Assembly: GCF_022846255.1 (NCBI RefSeq)
Contig: NZ_AP025682.1
DNA from: Escherichia coli
GTDB taxonomy: Bacteria > Pseudomonadota > Gammaproteobacteria > Enterobacterales > Enterobacteriaceae
Reading direction: 5' to 3' (one strand)
Length of the DNA stretch: 64,000 nt
The notes beneath the pieces were generated by a model. The model saw only the letters and a list, made by a program, of their open reading frames with translations, was not told the DNA's origin and ran no database searches. The position numbers were made by a program, and so were the translations under genes. The stretch's first letter is position 1. Each line of letters starts with the position of its first letter. Below, piece by piece: positions 62 to 33,853 of the stretch.

Positions 62-137
62 CAGCGCATCAGATTCTTTATAATGACGCCCGTTTCCCCC
101 CCTTGGGTACACCGAAAGCTTAGAAGACGAGAGACTT

Positions 138-3100
138 ATGATGGAAATTCTGCGTGGTTCGCCTGCATTGTCGGCATTCCGAATCAACAAACTGCTGGCA
201 CGTTTTCAGGCTGCCAGGCTCCTGGTTCACACTATTTACGCCGAGTATGTCCATTTTGCTGACCTCAATGCGCCGTTAAACGATGATGAGCACGCACAAC
301 TTGAACGCCTGCTGAAATATGGCCCGGCACTCGCCAGCCACGCCCCGCAAGGCAAACTCCTGCTGGTGACCCCGCGTCCTGGCACCATCTCTCCCTGGTC
401 TTCGAAAGCGACCGATATTGCCCATAACTGCGGGCTGCAACAGGTAAACCGCCTTGAGCGCGGCGTTGCTTACTATATAGAAGCCGGTACGCTGACCAAT
501 GAACAATGGCAGCAGGTTACCGCTGAACTGCACGACCGCATGATGGAAACGGTCTTTTTTGCTTTAGATGATGCAGAGCAGCTGTTTGCACACCATCAAC
601 CGACTCCGGTCACCAGCGTTGATTTGCTGGGGCAGGGCCGTCAGGCGCTAATCGACGCTAACCTGCGTCTTGGCCTGGCACTGGCGGAAGATGAAATTGA
701 CTATTTGCAGGATGCTTTCACAAAGCTTGGTCGTAACCCGAACGACATCGAACTGTATATGTTTGCCCAGGCGAACTCCGAGCACTGCCGCCACAAAATT
801 TTTAACGCCGACTGGGTTATCGATGGTGAACAGCAGCCGAAATCGCTATTTAAGATGATCAAAAACACCTTCGAAACCACGCCGGATCACGTTCTCTCTG
901 CTTATAAAGATAACGCCGCCGTAATGGAAGGTTCTGAAGTGGGCCGCTACTTTGCTGACCACGAAACGGGCCGCTACGATTTCCATCAGGAACCGGCGCA
1001 TATTCTGATGAAAGTCGAAACTCACAACCACCCGACGGCGATTTCTCCGTGGCCGGGCGCGGCGACCGGTTCCGGCGGTGAAATCCGCGATGAAGGTGCC
1101 ACCGGACGTGGCGCAAAGCCGAAAGCCGGTCTGGTTGGTTTCTCCGTATCCAACCTGCGAATTCCTGGCTTCGAACAGCCGTGGGAAGAAGATTTCGGTA
1201 AACCTGAGCGCATTGTTACCGCGCTGGACATCATGACCGAAGGCCCGCTGGGCGGTGCGGCGTTTAACAACGAATTTGGTCGTCCGGCACTGAACGGCTA
1301 CTTCCGTACTTATGAAGAAAAAGTGAACAGCCACAATGGCGAAGAGCTGCGCGGTTATCACAAACCGATCATGCTGGCGGGTGGGATCGGCAACATTCGC
1401 GCCGATCACGTACAAAAAGGCGAGATCAACGTTGGTGCGAAGCTGGTCGTTCTCGGCGGCCCGGCAATGAACATCGGTCTTGGCGGCGGCGCGGCGTCTT
1501 CCATGGCATCTGGTCAGTCTGATGCCGACCTCGACTTTGCTTCCGTACAGCGCGACAACCCGGAGATGGAGCGTCGCTGCCAGGAAGTGATCGACCGTTG
1601 CTGGCAGCTTGGTGATGCCAACCCAATCCTGTTTATCCACGACGTTGGCGCAGGCGGTCTTTCTAACGCCATGCCGGAACTGGTGAGCGACGGCGGGCGC
1701 GGCGGTAAATTTGAACTGCGCGATATCCTGAGCGACGAACCGGGCATGAGCCCGCTGGAAATCTGGTGTAACGAATCCCAGGAACGCTACGTGCTGGCGG
1801 TTGCTGCCGATCAGTTACCGCTGTTTGACGAACTGTGTAAGCGTGAGCGCGCACCCTACGCGGTGATTGGTGAAGCGACCGAAGAACTGCATCTTTCTTT
1901 GCACGATCGTCATTTTGATAATCAGCCGATTGATCTACCGCTGGACGTACTGCTTGGCAAAACGCCGAAGATGACCCGCGATGTACAAACGCTGAAAGCG
2001 AAAGGCGACGCGCTGGCCCGTGAAGGGATCACCATCGCTGACGCGGTGAAACGCGTGCTGCATCTGCCGACCGTGGCGGAGAAAACTTTCCTGGTGACCA
2101 TCGGTGACCGCAGCGTAACCGGCATGGTGGCGCGCGATCAGATGGTGGGGCCGTGGCAGGTGCCGGTCGCTAACTGCGCGGTCACTACCGCCAGCCTCGA
2201 CAGCTACTATGGCGAAGCGATGGCAATTGGCGAACGTGCGCCAGTTGCGCTGCTGGATTTCGCCGCTTCTGCCCGTCTGGCAGTCGGTGAAGCGCTAACC
2301 AACATCGCCGCAACACAAATTGGCGATATCAAACGCATTAAACTTTCCGCCAACTGGATGGCGGCGGCAGGCCACCCTGGTGAAGATGCTGGCCTGTATG
2401 AAGCCGTTAAAGCTGTGGGTGAAGAACTTTGTCCGGCGCTGGGCCTGACGATACCGGTGGGTAAAGACTCTATGTCGATGAAAACCCGCTGGCAGGAAGG
2501 TAACGAAGAGCGCGAAATGACGTCGCCGTTGTCGCTGGTGATTTCCGCATTTGCCCGCGTGGAAGATGTACGTCACACCATTACGCCGCAGCTTTCTACC
2601 GAAGATAACGCACTGTTGCTGATTGATTTGGGCAAAGGCAATAACGCGCTGGGCGCAACGGCACTGGCGCAGGTTTATCGTCAGCTTGGCGACAAACCGG
2701 CAGATGTACGCGATGTTGCCCAACTGAAAGGTTTCTATGACGCGATTCAGGCACTGGTTGCACAGCGTAAGCTGCTCGCGTACCACGACCGCTCTGACGG
2801 TGGCCTGCTGGTGACGCTGGCGGAAATGGCGTTTGCTGGTCATTGTGGCATTGACGCAGATATCGCCACTCTGGGTGACGATCGTCTGGCTGCATTGTTT
2901 AGCGAAGAACTGGGTGCGGTGATTCAGGTGCGAGCCGCTGACCGTGAAGCCGTTGAAGCGGTACTGGCACAGCATGGGCTTGCTGATTGCGTCCATTATG
3001 TTGGGCAGGCGGTTTCCGGTGACCGTTTTGTGATTACCGCCAACGGGCAGACTGTATTTAGCGAAAGCCGCACCACGTTGCGTGTCTGGTGGGCAGAAAC

Positions 3101-4025
3101 TACCTGGCAGATGCAGCGCCTGCGTGACAACCCGGAGTGTGCCGATCAGGAACATCAGGCGAAATCAAACGACGCCGATCCGGGCCTTAATGTGAAACTG
3201 TCGTTCGATATCAACGAAGATGTGGCAGCACCGTTTATTGCCACTGGCGCGCGTCCGAAAGTTGCTGTGCTGCGTGAGCAGGGCGTGAACTCCCATGTTG
3301 AAATGGCGGCAGCTTTCCACCGTGCAGGCTTCGATGCTATCGACGTGCATATGAGCGATCTGCTGGCTGGACGCACGGGCCTGGAGGGTTTCCACGCCCT
3401 GGTCGCGTGCGGTGGTTTTTCCTACGGTGATGTGCTGGGCGCTGGTGAAGGTTGGGCGAAGTCTATCCTGTTCAATGACCGTGTACGCGATGAGTTTGCA
3501 ACCTTCTTCCATCGTCCGCAAACGCTGGCGCTGGGGGTATGTAACGGTTGCCAGATGATGTCTAATCTGCGTGAACTGATCCCAGGTAGCGAGTTGTGGC
3601 CACGTTTTGTGCGTAACACCTCCGATCGCTTTGAAGCGCGTTTCAGTCTGGTAGAAGTAACCCAAAGCCCGTCGCTGCTGTTGCAGGGGATGGTGGGCTC
3701 GCAGATGCCGATTGCTGTCTCTCACGGTGAAGGGCGCGTTGAAGTGCGCGATGCGGCGCATCTGGCGGCACTGGAAAGCAAAGGGCTGGTGGCACTGCGC
3801 TATGTCGATAACTTCGGCAAAGTCACTGAAACCTACCCGGCTAACCCGAACGGTTCACCGAACGGTATTACGGCGGTCACGACTGAAAGTGGTCGAGTCA
3901 CCATTATGATGCCGCACCCGGAACGAGTTTTCCGTACTGTCAGCAACTCCTGGCATCCGGAAAACTGGGGCGAGGATGGCCCATGGATGCGCATTTTCCG
4001 CAATGCACGTAAGCAGTTGGGGTAA
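138..4025 (+). CDS. purL: phosphoribosylformylglycinamidine synthase (large single-chain FGAM synthase)
   Basis: 1295-aa ORF with N-terminal [20 protein letters not shown] and a C-terminal glutamine amidotransferase domain (GVCNGCQMM); full-length collinear match to enterobacterial PurL from memory. Confidence 0.97.
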
Positions 4026-4044
4026 GTCGTCAACCCATTGGTAT

Positions 4045-4080
4045 TGCAGCCCGGATGAGGCATTCACGCCGCATCCGGCA
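4045..4080. repeat. REP-like palindromic element downstream of purL
   Basis: GCCGGATG...CATCCGGC imperfect palindrome typical of enterobacterial REP units. Confidence 0.4.
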
Positions 4081-4103
4081 TTAAGCACCAACCGCTATTA
4101 TGA

Positions 4104-4127
4104 GCTCCCAACTTCGGGAGCTTTTTT
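4104..4127 (+). terminator. intrinsic terminator of purL
   Basis: GCTCCC-aacttc-GGGAGC hairpin immediately followed by TTTTTT. Confidence 0.6.
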
Positions 4128-4128
4128 G

Positions 4129-4242
4129 TGTCTGTAAATCACGACAATGGGTGGTTTGCCGTGTCGCTTTTTGGTGACACTTAACTCATTGATTTTAATA
4201 TTATCTAATAAGTTTATCTTAAGTTGTCTCTTTTTAGCGACA
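4129..4242 (+). promoter_or_regulatory. three TGTC-N10-GACA activator sites (GlrR/QseF-type) upstream of glmY
   Basis: TGTCtgtaaatcacGACA 4129-4146, TGTCgctttttggtGACA 4162-4179 and TGTCtctttttagcGACA 4225-4242, all with 10-bp spacers, 90-230 bp upstream of a sigma54 promoter. Confidence 0.6.
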
Positions 4243-4331
4243 CAGTGGCTGATTTACATTCAAATAGCGGAGAAGCCATAAACCCCTCAAAGCAGCGTAT
4301 AATCAGTATGTTACCAAACTATTTTCTTTAT

Positions 4332-4351
4332 TGGCACAGTTACTGCATAAT
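4332..4351 (+). promoter_or_regulatory. sigma54 (-24 TGGCAC / -12 CTGCA) promoter overlapping a sigma70 -10 (CATAAT) for glmY
   Basis: TGGCAC at 4332-4337 and CTGCA at 4343-4347 (GG-N10-GC spacing), with CATAAT at 4346-4351, about 8 nt upstream of the glmY 5' end. Confidence 0.65.
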
Positions 4352-4358
4352 AGTAAGC

Positions 4359-4544
4359 AGTGGCTCATTCGCCGACTTATGTCAGCCCCTTCGGGACGTG
4401 CTACATAAAATTCGAATGACGCACAACAAGGTGCCTGCCGTCCAACTTCTGATATCAGCGTAGCTATATCAACCATCGGGCGAAACGTCGAGTTAGGCAC
4501 CGCCTTATTCCATAACAAAGCCGGGTAATTCCCGGCTTTGTTGT
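4359..4544 (+). ncRNA. glmY: GlmY small RNA (regulator of glmS via GlmZ/RapZ)
   Basis: Begins AGTGGCTCATTC..., about 185 nt, ends in AAAGCCGGG-taat-CCCGGCTTT hairpin plus U-run at 4518-4544; sits immediately upstream of glrK as in K-12; no credible ORF. Confidence 0.8.
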
Positions 4545-4600
4545 ATCTGAACTTCCCCTCGGTTAGCATCAGGCTATTCGCGTCTGACGAGAGTAACGCC

Positions 4601-6028
4601 TTGAAACGCTGGCCCGTTTTTCCCCGCTCATTACGACAACTGGTAATGCTGGCATTTTTGCTGATTCTGCTGCCCCTGTTGGTGCTGGCATGGCAAGCCT
4701 GGCAAAGCCTGAATGCACTTAGCGATCAGGCGGCGCTGGTTAACCGCACTACGCTTATTGATGCCCGGCGCAGTGAAGCGATGACCAACGCGGCACTGGA
4801 GATGGAGCGCAGCTATCGTCAGTACTGCGTGCTGGACGACCCTACGCTTGCGAAGGTTTATCAAAGCCAGCGCAAGCGTTACAGCGAAATGCTCGATGCC
4901 CACGCAGGCGTGCTGCCGGACGATAAACTCTACCAGGCATTACGTCAGGATTTGAACAATCTGGCTCAACTTCAGTGTAACAACAGCGGTCCCGATGCTG
5001 CTGCCGCCGCGCGTCTGGAAGCCTTTGCCAGTGCCAATACCGAAATGGTGCAGGCCACGCGCACAGTGGTGTTCTCTCGTGGGCAGCAACTTCAGCGTGA
5101 AATCGCCGAACGTGGGCAATATTTTGGTTGGCAATCGCTGGTGCTATTTCTGGTGAGTCTGGTGATGGTACTGCTTTTCACGAGGATGATTATCGGTCCG
5201 GTGAAAAATATCGAGCGCATGATCAACCGGCTGGGGGAAGGGCGTTCTCTGGGCAATAGCGTCTCGTTCAGTGGACCGAGCGAGTTACGCTCGGTTGGGC
5301 AACGTATTCTTTGGTTAAGTGAGCGCCTGTCATGGCTGGAATCCCAACGCCATCAATTTTTAAGACATTTATCTCATGAATTAAAAACGCCACTGGCGAG
5401 TATGCGCGAGGGCACTGAATTACTGGCTGATCAGGTTGTCGGGCCGCTTACGCCAGAGCAAAAAGAGGTGGTGAGCATTCTTGATAGCAGCAGCCGCAAT
5501 TTGCAAAAGCTGATCGAACAACTGCTTGATTACAACCGTAAACAGGCGGACAGTGCGGTGGAACTGGAGAATGTTGAGTTAGCACCGCTGGTGGAGACAG
5601 TGGTTTCTGCTCATAGCCTGCCCGCACGGGCTAAAATGATGCATACCGACGTTGATCTCAAAGCAACAGCTTGCCTGGCGGAGCCAATGCTGCTGATGAG
5701 CGTACTGGATAATCTTTACTCCAATGCGGTGCACTACGGGGCTGAATCCGGTAACATTTGCCTTCGCAGCAGTTTACATGGTGCGCGGGTTTATATTGAT
5801 GTCATCAATACAGGCACGCCCATTCCGCAAGAGGAACGCGCCATGATCTTCGAACCCTTTTTTCAGGGAAGCCACCAGCGAAAAGGGGCGGTGAAGGGCA
5901 GCGGTCTGGGATTAAGCATTGCCAGGGATTGTATTCGCCGTATGCAAGGGGAACTGTATCTGGTCGACGAGAGCGGGCAAGACGTTTGTTTCCGCATTGA
6001 ATTACCGTCGTCGAAAAACACGAAATAA
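4601..6028 (+). CDS. glrK: sensor histidine kinase GlrK/QseE
   Basis: N-terminal TM segment, HAMP region, H-box SHELKTPL and HATPase motifs; start placed at TTG 4601 (MKRWPVFPRS...) rather than the upstream ATG 4538 of the ORF track, to match the known N-terminus. Confidence 0.88.
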   Translation: MKRWPVFPRSLRQLVMLAFLLILLPLLVLAWQAWQSLNALSDQAALVNRTTLIDARRSEAMTNAALEMERSYRQYCVLDDPTLAKVYQSQRKRYSEMLDAHAGVLPDDKLYQALRQDLNNLAQLQCNNSGPDAAAAARLEAFASANTEMVQATRTVVFSRGQQLQREIAERGQYFGWQSLVLFLVSLVMVLLFTRMIIGPVKNIERMINRLGEGRSLGNSVSFSGPSELRSVGQRILWLSERLSWLESQRHQFLRHLSHELKTPLASMREGTELLADQVVGPLTPEQKEVVSILDSSSRNLQKLIEQLLDYNRKQADSAVELENVELAPLVETVVSAHSLPARAKMMHTDVDLKATACLAEPMLLMSVLDNLYSNAVHYGAESGNICLRSSLHGARVYIDVINTGTPIPQEERAMIFEPFFQGSHQRKGAVKGSGLGLSIARDCIRRMQGELYLVDESGQDVCFRIELPSSKNTK

Positions 6029-6192
6029 TGCTAACAGCCCATCCCATCAGGCTATTTTATTTGTCAGTTCGGCCCCGGGCAGTGCTCGAAATCTTCACGT
6101 ACGACATGTACGCTCCGGTTTCTCCGCGCTGTCCATGTCCAAACTGCCTGCAACAATTACGCCCACTGGGATAGGCTTTAAGTCTGGTGAAT

Positions 6193-6906
6193 ATGCGACA
6201 CATTTTTCAACGATTATTGCCCCGACGGCTGTGGCTGGCAGGGCTGCCATGTCTGGCATTGCTGGGTTGCGTGCAGAGTCACAATAGGCCAGCCATTGAT
6301 ACGCCAGCAGAAGAAAAAATTCCGGTTTATCAACTGGCTGACTATCTTTCTACTGAATGTAGCGACATCTGGGCGCTGCAAGGTAAATCTACCGAAACCA
6401 ATCCGCTTTACTGGCTGCGGGCGATGGATTGTGCTGATCGTTTAATGCCTGCGCAGTCGCGTCAGCAAGCCCGCCAATATGACGACGGCAACTGGCAAAA
6501 TACCTTTAAACAAGGGATTTTGCTCGCCGACGCCAAAATTACTCCGTATGAGCGCCGCCAGCTGGTCGCGCGCATTGATGCGCTAAGTACCGAGATCCCG
6601 GCACAGGTTCGCCCACTGTATCAACTTTGGCGCGACGGTCAGGCGCTGCAACTGCAACTGGCGGAAGAGCGCCAACGCTACAGCAAACTCCAGCAGTCCA
6701 GCGACAGCGAGCTGGATACTTTGCGCCAGCAACATCACGTTCTACAACAGCAACTGGAACTCACTACCCGCAAGCTGGAAAACCTGACCGATATTGAACG
6801 CCAGCTCTCGACCCGCAAACCGGCCGGAAATTTCTCGCCGGATACGCCGCACGAGAGTGAAAAGCCCGCGCCATCCACCGATGAGGTCACTCCTGATGAG
6901 CCATAA
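6193..6906 (+). CDS. qseG: outer-membrane lipoprotein QseG/GlrP (accessory component of the GlrK-GlrR system)
   Basis: Signal peptide with lipobox LLGC, coiled-coil-rich C-terminus; lies between glrK and glrR. Confidence 0.85.
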   Translation: MRHIFQRLLPRRLWLAGLPCLALLGCVQSHNRPAIDTPAEEKIPVYQLADYLSTECSDIWALQGKSTETNPLYWLRAMDCADRLMPAQSRQQARQYDDGNWQNTFKQGILLADAKITPYERRQLVARIDALSTEIPAQVRPLYQLWRDGQALQLQLAEERQRYSKLQQSSDSELDTLRQQHHVLQQQLELTTRKLENLTDIERQLSTRKPAGNFSPDTPHESEKPAPSTDEVTPDEP

Positions 6907-8230
6907 ACCTGCGCATTTATTACTGGTCGATGACGATCCGGGATTGCTGAAACTGCTTGGCCTGCGCCTGACCAGCGAAGGCTACAGTGTGGTCACGGCG
7001 GAAAGTGGTGCTGAAGGATTGCGGGTACTGAATCGCGAAAAAGTAGATTTAGTCATCAGCGACCTGCGGATGGATGAAATGGACGGTATGCAGCTGTTTG
7101 CTGAAATCCAGAAAGTGCAGCCGGGAATGCCAGTAATTATTCTTACCGCGCATGGTTCTATTCCTGATGCCGTTGCTGCAACACAGCAGGGCGTGTTCAG
7201 TTTTCTCACCAAGCCTGTCGATAAAGATGCGCTATATCAGGCAATTGACGATGCGCTGGAACAATCCGCGCCAGCCACCGACGAACGTTGGCGCGAGGCG
7301 ATTGTCACCCGCAGCCCGCTGATGCTGCGCTTGCTGGAACAGGCGCGGCTGGTGGCACAATCAGACGTTAGCGTTTTGATTAACGGCCAGAGCGGCACCG
7401 GGAAAGAGATTTTCGCCCAGGCTATCCACAACGCCAGCCCGCGCAACAGCAAGCCATTTATTGCTATTAACTGTGGCGCATTACCCGAGCAATTGCTGGA
7501 GTCGGAGCTGTTTGGTCATGCACGTGGCGCGTTTACTGGCGCTGTCAGCAATCGCGAAGGTTTATTCCAGGCGGCGGAAGGCGGTACGCTATTTCTTGAT
7601 GAGATTGGCGATATGCCTGCACCGTTGCAGGTCAAACTGCTGCGCGTGTTGCAGGAGCGTAAAGTGCGCCCGCTGGGCAGTAACCGCGATATTGATATCG
7701 ACGTGCGGATTATTTCTGCGACCCACCGCGACCTGCCAAAAGCGATGGCGCGTGGGGAATTCCGTGAAGATCTTTATTACCGCCTCAATGTTGTCAGCCT
7801 GAAAATTCCGGCACTGGCGGAGCGCACAGAAGACATTCCGCTACTGGCAAATCACCTGTTGCGCCAGGCGGCAGAGCGACATAAACCGTTTGTCCGCGCG
7901 TTCTCCACCGATGCAATGAAACGCCTGATGACTGCGAGCTGGCCGGGCAACGTGCGCCAGTTGGTCAACGTGATTGAACAGTGCGTGGCGCTGACATCAT
8001 CTCCGGTAATTAGTGATGCGCTGGTGGAGCAGGCGCTGGAGGGCGAAAACACGGCGCTGCCAACCTTTGTTGAGGCGCGTAATCAGTTTGAACTCAACTA
8101 TTTGCGTAAGCTGCTGCAAATCACCAAAGGCAACGTCACCCACGCGGCGAGAATGGCGGGGCGCAACCGGACAGAATTTTATAAACTGCTTTCCCGACAC
8201 GAACTGGATGCAAACGATTTCAAGGAATGA
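6896..8230 (+). CDS. glrR: sigma54-dependent response regulator GlrR/QseF
   Basis: Receiver domain (LLVDDDPGLL), AAA+ sigma54-activation domain with Walker A GQSGTGKE and the GAFTGA motif, C-terminal HTH; ATG at 6896 overlaps the qseG stop by 11 nt. Confidence 0.92.
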   Translation: MSHKPAHLLLVDDDPGLLKLLGLRLTSEGYSVVTAESGAEGLRVLNREKVDLVISDLRMDEMDGMQLFAEIQKVQPGMPVIILTAHGSIPDAVAATQQGVFSFLTKPVDKDALYQAIDDALEQSAPATDERWREAIVTRSPLMLRLLEQARLVAQSDVSVLINGQSGTGKEIFAQAIHNASPRNSKPFIAINCGALPEQLLESELFGHARGAFTGAVSNREGLFQAAEGGTLFLDEIGDMPAPLQVKLLRVLQERKVRPLGSNRDIDIDVRIISATHRDLPKAMARGEFREDLYYRLNVVSLKIPALAERTEDIPLLANHLLRQAAERHKPFVRAFSTDAMKRLMTASWPGNVRQLVNVIEQCVALTSSPVISDALVEQALEGENTALPTFVEARNQFELNYLRKLLQITKGNVTHAARMAGRNRTEFYKLLSRHELDANDFKE

Positions 8231-8254: not shown

Positions 8255-8629
<375 letters not shown>

Positions 8630-8673: not shown

Positions 8674-9864
8674 TCACAGCACCTTATGCGGGCCAAAGCA
8701 TTCGTAATGAATGTTTTCCTGTTTCACGCCCAGATCCACTAACTGTTTCGCGGCAAACTGCATGAAGCCAACCGGGCCGCAGAGATAGAACTGCATTGTC
8801 GGATCGCTGAACGCACCTTCCAGTTTGCTCAAATCCATCAGACCTTCGCTATCAAACTGACCTTTAGCGCGATCGGCTTCGCTCGGCTGACGATACCAGG
8901 TGTGTGCGGTAAAGCGTGGCAGTGATTGACCCAGTTCCTTAACTTCATCGGCAAAGGCGTGAACATTGCCATTTTCTGCCGCATGGAACCAGTTCACTTG
9001 TGCTGTGTGGCCTGCTTTTGCCAGCGTGTCGAGCATTGCCAGCATTGGCGTTTGACCGACACCGGCAGAGATTAACGTCACTGGTGTGTCATCTGCGACA
9101 GCCATAAAGAAATCACCTGCCGGAGCGACCAGTTTCACGACATCGCCAACATTGGCGTGATTGTGCAGCCAGTTGGATACCTGCCCGCCATCTTCGCGTT
9201 TCACCGCAATACGATAGCCTTTGCCATCCGGTTTGCGAGTCAAAGAGTACTGACGAATTTCCTGATGCGGGAAACCTTCCGGCTTCAGCCAGACGCCGAG
9301 ATATTGCCCCGGACGGTATTCTGCCACTGCGCCACCGTCGACCGGCTCCAGTTCGAAGCTGGTGATAAGCGCGCTGCGCGGTGTTTTAGCCACAATGCGG
9401 AAATCGCGAGTACCTTCCCAACCACCGGCTTTGCTGGCGTTTTCGTTATAGATTTCCGCCTCGCGATTGATAAATACATTAGCCAGGACGCCATAGGCTT
9501 TACCCCACGCGTCCAGCACTTCCTGCCCCGGGCTGAACATTTCGTCCAGCGTTGCCAACAGGTGTTCACCGACGATGTTGTACTGTTCCGGTTTGATCTG
9601 GAAACTGGTGTGCTTCTGCGCGATTTTTTCTACCGCTGGCAGCAGCGCAGGCAGGTTTTCAATATTGCTGGCGTAGGCGGCAATAGCGTTAAACAGGGCT
9701 TCACGTTGATCGCCATTACGCTGGTTACTCATGTTAAAAATTTCTTTGAGTTCTGGGTTATGAGTAAACATACGGTCGTAGAAATGGGCGGTTAACTTTG
9801 GTCCCGTTTCCACCAGTAAAGGGATGGTGGCTTTTACTGTAGCGATGGTTTGAGCGTCAAGCAT
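8674..9864 (-). CDS. hmp: flavohemoglobin / nitric oxide dioxygenase
   Basis: 396 aa; N-terminal globin domain ([17 protein letters not shown]) fused to FAD/NAD(P)H ferredoxin-reductase-like domain. Confidence 0.96.
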
Positions 9865-33742: not shown

Positions 33743-33853
33743 TAAAAAGAATTCAGAATCAGGCCGGAGTGCCAAACACTCCGTAAACACGGTCGTACAT
33801 CCAGCCGGTAGCCTGGTTCCTTGCATTGAGTGATGTACGGAGTTTATAGAGCA

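Follow-up and report, generated by a model that had tools for sequence, protein, structure and literature searches.

The glmY small RNA locus of an Escherichia coli chromosome: predicted GlrR/QseF sites and overlapping promoter elements for sigma-54 and sigma-70 that match those of K-12

The small RNA gene glmY, its three GlrR sites, its IHF sites and its promoters for sigma-54 and sigma-70, which overlap, are already known, having been published and experimentally dissected between 2009 and 2018. The K-12 glmY promoter was reportedly described by Reichenbach et al. in 2009 (Mol Microbiol 74:1054), whose findings reached us through later papers from the same laboratory. Control of the K-12 promoter by GlrR/QseF, IHF, sigma-54 and sigma-70 is the subject of Göpel et al. 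2011 (PMC3045617). GlrR activates glmY through three TGTCN10GACA motifs lying more than 100 bp upstream (ABS1-3), and promoter activity requires ABS2 and ABS3 but can do without ABS1; two IHF-like sites flank ABS3, with IHF and site 1 needed for the sigma-54 promoter only, and both mutagenesis and EMSA support the function of the sites in K-12 (PMC3045617). The multiple sites may aid formation of the GlrR hexamer, and IHF may permit looping (PMC4152352). The GlrK/GlrR system is itself encoded downstream of glmY in K-12 (PMC3045617, PMC4152352, PMC6075780). The K-12 primary transcript of 184 nt is processed to an active form of 148 nt, and GlmY, which is without complementarity to glmS, acts as a decoy for RapZ (PMC4152352).

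We analyzed a 64-kb stretch of E. coli DNA, here called the window, and one region of it is almost certainly the E. coli glmY gene together with its own transcriptional control region. The presence, position, uniqueness and conservation of the elements described below, the Rfam membership of the RNA and the identity of the neighboring genes are direct observations on this DNA. The protein-coding genes surrounding the region are the following.

138-4025, plus strand: purL (phosphoribosylformylglycinamidine synthase), a 1,295-aa open reading frame upstream of glmY (NCBIfam NF003672, 2270.9 bits), named purL in K-12 and in strain 95-3322
4601-6028, plus strand: qseE/glrK sensor histidine kinase, TTG start, 475 aa, matching histidine-kinase families
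6187-6906, plus strand: qseG (yfhG) lipoprotein (NCBIfam NF007997, 359.5 bits)
6896-8230, plus strand: glrR/qseF sigma-54-dependent response regulator, 444 aa (NCBIfam equivalog NF011695, 982.9 bits)
8291-8629, plus strand: glnB, PII protein (NCBIfam NF008111, 243.2 bits)

The K-12 annotation gives the gene order purL, qseE, qseG, glrR, glnB, hmpA, and the qseE start at 4601 (TTG) is that annotation carried over by alignment. An earlier note on this DNA had placed a glrK-qseG-glrR two-component system directly 3' of the small RNA, with a GAFTGA sigma-54-activation motif in its regulator. The NCBIfam and histidine-kinase matches bear out the former, and the GlrR translation carries the GAFTGA loop as well as receiver residue D56. 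GlrR, encoded near the glmY promoter, fits the cognate enhancer-binding protein expected of such a promoter, one with a receiver, an AAA+ domain containing GAFTGA and an HTH.

A 615-bp query around glmY found a match in 5,425 of 5,426 complete E. coli genomes, chromosomal every time; strain 95-3322 is 100% identical, K-12 BW25113 is about 97% identical, and 903 genomes were at least 99% identical to the allele of the window. Two open reading frames across the region (4224-4463, plus strand, 79 aa; 4303-4569, minus strand, 88 aa) were rejected as genes, as they span the promoter and the small RNA. We take them to be mechanical because conservation follows motif and RNA-structure patterns rather than codon patterns. 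The RefSeq/PGAP annotation contains only qseE and purL here, with no glmY ncRNA feature in BW25113, in 95-3322 or among the matches listed, so that an annotation-based filter would wrongly call the region empty.

The small RNA and its terminator occupy two adjoining segments.

4359-4506, plus strand: GlmY sRNA core, covariance match to Rfam RF00128 (GlmY_tke1)
4507-4544, plus strand: GlmY 3' tail and intrinsic terminator, stem 4513-4541, from the fold; removed by processing according to the K-12 literature

The whole window was scanned with Rfam 15 at gathering thresholds. GlmY_tke1 matched at 4359-4506 with 143.6 bits (gathering score 33, E = 6e-32), covering positions 1-163 of the 163 in the model; the earlier note had let its identification hang on a match of this family within 4359-4544. 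The match spans 148 nt, equal to the published length of processed, active GlmY. Folding of the 186 nt from 4359 to 4544 gives -69.3 kcal/mol, compared with -46.6 ± 3.7 kcal/mol for shuffled sequences (z = -6.1), and the minimum-free-energy fold reproduces both Rfam domains and their helices, followed by a terminal hairpin of 14 bp, ACAAAGCCGGG-loop-CCCGGCTTTGT. By this fold the transcript would end near 4541-4544, at the hairpin. The structured RNA of about 185 nt and the terminator claimed from the letters alone are where they had been placed; the processing from 184 to 148 nt had been overlooked. A generic terminator scan of the window passed over the glmY hairpin, a miss that we put down to its interrupted T-run (TTTGTTGT) rather than to a missing terminator, as the fold shows the hairpin clearly. 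The consensus structure holds across 16 orthologues and comprises 54 predicted pairs, 7 of which show compensatory double changes, six of these within the stem of the terminator; the core helices hardly vary, and covariation there is therefore uninformative either way.

Upstream of the RNA, the control region contains the following elements, with distances given relative to the start nucleotide A4359.

4129-4146, unstranded: predicted GlrR/QseF site ABS1, TGTCTGTAAATCACGACA, starting at -230
4162-4179, unstranded: predicted GlrR/QseF site ABS2, TGTCGCTTTTTGGTGACA, starting at -197
4182-4194, minus strand: IHF-like motif AATCAATGAGTTA, between ABS2 and ABS3
4225-4242, unstranded: predicted GlrR/QseF site ABS3, TGTCTCTTTTTAGCGACA, starting at -134
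4301-4313, plus strand: IHF-like motif AATCAGTATGTTA, between ABS3 and the promoter
4332-4347, plus strand: sigma-54 promoter TGGCAC-N5-CTGCA, GG at -26/-25 and GC at -14/-13
4346-4351, plus strand: CATAAT, the sigma-70 -10 hexamer, which overlaps the -12 element of the sigma-54 promoter, ends 7 nt before A4359 and is the same as in K-12

Across the 64 kb, TGTC-N10-GACA is matched at exactly three places (4129-4146, 4162-4179 and 4225-4242), in agreement with the three enhancer sites that had been proposed between 4129 and 4242. Center to center, the sites are separated by 33 and 63 bp, close to three and six turns of the helix, so all three probably lie on one face of it, and a GlrR hexamer could be assembled from three dimers along that face. 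Both IHF-like motifs match the consensus WATCARNNNNTTR. Judging from the text of the K-12 study, the motifs at 4182-4194 and 4301-4313 are probably its two IHF-like sites (PMC3045617). An earlier reader, given the raw sequence alone, had recovered the complete regulatory architecture of sites and promoters correctly; the two IHF-like motifs, which serve the sigma-54 promoter, had escaped notice.

The sigma-54 element proposed in that reading is at 4332-4347 and is the sole match to TGGCACN5YTGCW in the window. Together with the preceding T, the 17-mer at 4331-4347 reads TTGGCACAGTTACTGCA, identical to the motif given for glmY in a sigma-54 ChIP-seq study (TTGGCACAGTTACTGCA; PMC4591121). The overlapping CATAAT is the characterized glmY -10 in K-12 (PMC3045617). 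No acceptable -35 precedes CATAAT, and a generic sigma-70 scan did not report the glmY promoter, a miss that we attribute to the lack of a good -35. Since there is no -35 and the scan is silent, the sigma-70 promoter rests on K-12 mutagenesis (PMC3045617) rather than on the sequence; the hexamer is where it had been said to be, and its function as a promoter comes from that mutagenesis.

In order to compare the locus across species, a genome collection of species representatives was scanned with GGTGCCN3CGNCCAN{20,50}AGGCACC, a pattern from within GlmY, yielding at least 120 loci. Among the matches listed, most are chance occurrences in GC-rich genomes, for example Streptomyces and Pseudomonas, and 15 are glmY loci, chosen by their 5' GCTCATTC/CGAATGA motifs. 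Because the scan pattern is too loose, the comparison set is the core Enterobacteriaceae; Yersinia, Serratia and Proteus were covered through the literature alone. As in the window, purL is upstream and glrK/qseE downstream in every one of the 15 that has enough flank, which confirms the choice. The 16-sequence alignment contains the window, K-12 and 14 of these loci, one from E. albertii and 13 from species in other genera of the Enterobacteriaceae, and the window base serves as reference. Identity to the window base across the 16 sequences is as follows.

ABS1 halves: 98% / 97%
ABS2 halves: 98% / 97%
ABS3 halves: 84% / 94%
TGGCAC: 97%
CTGCA: 90%
CATAAT: 90%
Spacers in and between sites: 38-67%

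Identity in the spacer DNA next to the half-sites and the sigma-54 element is 38-52%. TGGCA and TGC of the sigma-54 promoter are invariant across the 16 sequences. CATAAT is present in 12 of the 16 aligned species and missing in Pseudocitrobacter, Siccibacter, Mangrovibacter and Shimwellia, which agrees with the published view that only some genera have the sigma-70 overlap. ABS1 has zero mismatches in 13 of the 16 and deviates in a few, and the left half of ABS3 is TGTT in many genera (TGTT...GACA); this variation fits published work, where ABS1 and ABS3 are named as the main places of deviation (PMC3045617). In other species with exact sites, the ABS spacings of 32-33 and 62-63 bp are retained. 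Column conservation of the IHF-like motifs is 83% at 4182-4194 and 74% at 4301-4313, the latter with an invariant CA and T (16 sequences). The enhancer sites had been expected to recur in other enterobacterial glmY upstream regions, and they are found in register at 14 other purL-glmY-glrK loci and in K-12.

The half-sites are short, with 4 + 4 specified bases, and it might be argued that the three sites and the sigma-54-like sequence arose by chance in AT-rich intergenic DNA and that glmY is transcribed by sigma-70 only. Shuffling the window gives an expectation of 0.80 TGTC-N10-GACA matches per window, with at least three matches somewhere in 3 of 100 shuffles, and TGGCACN5YTGCW occurs at least once in 22 of 100. 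However, all three sites are packed into 114 bp directly upstream of a gene that adjoins the cognate regulator, and the expectation for such a cluster, calculated from the shuffle rate as L*lambda^3*w^2/2, is about 8e-7 (roughly 1e-6). Moreover, conservation across 16 sequences holds for the half-sites and their spacing, against about 40-50% identity in the intervening DNA, the sigma-54 17-mer equals a mapped ChIP-seq site, and published mutagenesis and EMSA support function (PMC3045617). The conservation pattern, the mutagenesis and the ChIP-seq data together already refute an origin by chance, to which we assign next to no probability. A different objection accepts the locus as glmY and holds that its regulation differs materially in this non-K-12 strain, through co-transcription with qseEGF or an altered balance between sigma-54 and sigma-70. 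Ten substitutions relative to K-12, including those at -2 (4357), in an IHF-like motif (4309) and in the ABS2 spacer (4171 and 4175), could be cited in its favor, as could the interrupted U-tract of the terminator and a glmY-qseE-qseG-qseF operon reported for Proteus mirabilis (PMC8745638). Against this, zero core motif positions are changed, the terminator and the 57-nt spacer are as in K-12 save one base, and read-through from glmY into qseEGF is virtually absent in K-12 (PMC6075780). We therefore consider materially different regulation very improbable, and we retain the reading of the locus as glmY under K-12-like control.

In K-12, qseEGF has its own weak sigma-70 promoter, which starts transcription 25 bp upstream of qseE and is not autoregulated (PMC6075780). 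A transcription start 25 bp 5' of the qseE TTG at 4601 would place the qseE start near 4576, and inspection by eye suggests one candidate there.

4541-4576, plus strand: candidate qseEGF sigma-70 promoter, -35 TTGTAT at 4541-4546 and -10 TAGCAT at 4564-4569, hexamers chosen by eye

A generic promoter scan reported nothing at 4541-4576. The candidate -35 TTGTAT sits on the tail of the glmY terminator.

The spacer between purL and the enhancer sites contains two further elements.

4050-4081, unstranded: REP-like palindrome GCCCGGATGAGGCATTCACGCCGCATCCGGC, in the stretch that separates purL from its terminator, complete in the window
4102-4127, plus strand: purL intrinsic terminator, an 8-bp stem followed by a T-run, listed by the terminator scan at 4102-4123 and abutting ABS1

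K-12 BW25113 is without 18 bp of the REP-like palindrome, whereas the copy in the window is complete, and these missing 18 bp account for the many E. coli matches that begin at query position 44 or 52. E. albertii is 92.7% identical to the window in purL and 89.9% identical from the sigma-54 promoter onward. Its spacer (strain NBRC 107761) measures 1,003 bp (L014, 8923-9925) compared with 306 bp in the window (4026-4331) and holds an open reading frame for a GNAT acetyltransferase on the minus strand (8991-9572, Pfam PF00583). By BLAST, the 1,003-bp spacer of E. albertii shows no similarity to the 306-bp one of E. coli, and a search of 5,426 E. coli genomes with the segment upstream of glmY in E. 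albertii gave no match. In E. albertii, the three ABS nevertheless stay in register with their spacing, as do both IHF-like motifs and the sigma-54 promoter, and each ABS there has 1-2 half-site mismatches (GACG). Citrobacter sp. FP75 has about 1 kb in the purL-glmY spacer, from which the GNAT homologue is absent. It is possible, though we think it unlikely, that glmY enhancer DNA turns over completely between sister species while the architecture stays fixed. If this were true, through recombination in one lineage with the sites re-acquired or carried in, the locus would represent a clean natural replacement of an enhancer under architectural constraint.

The same Rfam scan found four other RNA elements in the window, all above their gathering scores and all known in E. 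coli.

33743-33852, plus strand: iscRS stability element, 135.1 bits
41108-41412, minus strand: ryfA, 311.7 bits
41548-41724, minus strand: IS128, 164.8 bits
54518-54609, plus strand: sroE, 116.6 bits

There are 13 matches to the IHF consensus WATCARNNNNTTR in the whole window compared with 3.9 ± 2.0 in shuffled sequences, and none of 100 shuffles reached 13. Three of the matches (40686, 40789 and 41565) are around the ryfA/IS128 region.

For the allele in the window, binding of the sites, the sigma dependence of each promoter, the shared start, the need for IHF, the processing and the RapZ decoy function would follow published K-12 experiments. By analogy with these, GlrK (QseE) would phosphorylate GlrR (QseF) with the assistance of the lipoprotein QseG, and phospho-GlrR would bind the TGTC-N10-GACA sites at -230, -197 and -134. 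IHF, bound around ABS3, would bend the DNA and so allow the activator to reach the closed complex of sigma-54 polymerase at 4332-4347, where ATP hydrolysis by the GAFTGA-bearing AAA+ domain would open the promoter for a start at A4359. The weak sigma-70 promoter (CATAAT) would use the same start nucleotide, provide basal expression and be partly occluded by bound sigma-54. The 184-nt transcript is predicted to stop at the hairpin around 4541-4544, and 3' trimming would leave the 148-nt form from 4359 to about 4506. Trimmed GlmY would then mimic GlmZ and sequester RapZ, the adaptor of RNase E; GlmZ would be spared from RNase E and could activate glmS translation, raising GlmS when glucosamine-6-phosphate is scarce.

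A related system is that of GlmZ (Rfam RF00083, in the same clan CL00011 as GlmY), a base-pairing sRNA whose 5' and central stem-loops are homologous to those of GlmY. In E. coli, glmZ has a sigma-70 promoter only. Many other genera, Yersinia and Salmonella among them, share the glmY promoter layout at glmZ, where a sigma-54 promoter is combined with two IHF sites and three ABS (PMC3045617). The RNA in the window is distinguished from GlmZ in that its best Rfam match within the clan is GlmY and it adjoins qseEGF. The P2 promoter of E. coli rpoE also depends on QseF/GlrR and sigma-54, and similar upstream activating sequences have been reported for it (PMC6075780); although it shares its activator with glmY, it belongs to a different gene outside the window.

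The closest system is K-12 glmY itself (sroF/tke1, b4441). Between 4125 and 4544, the window differs from K-12 by ten substitutions (4171, 4175, 4265, 4273, 4276, 4295, 4309, 4357, 4371 and 4412), none of which falls in an ABS half-site, in the -24/-12 elements or in the -10 hexamer. Two are in the spacer of ABS2 (4171 and 4175), which is otherwise the same; 4309 (T/C) is inside one IHF-like motif, and 4357 (G/C) is at -2. Within GlmY, the window has G for A at +13 (4371) and U for A at +54 (4412). In the predicted fold, these two positions are in an internal loop beside the first helix, where G13 could pair with C55. Save for one base, the K-12 letters are also found throughout the terminator and the 57-nt spacer that precedes qseE. 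The ten differences and the 18 bp by which the REP-like palindrome is longer are ordinary strain-level polymorphisms. The window and K-12 agree fully in the ABS half-sites, TGGCAC-N5-CTGCA and CATAAT as well as in the start nucleotide and terminator, and they carry one and the same gene at one chromosomal position, purL-glmY-qseE-qseG-glrR-glnB.
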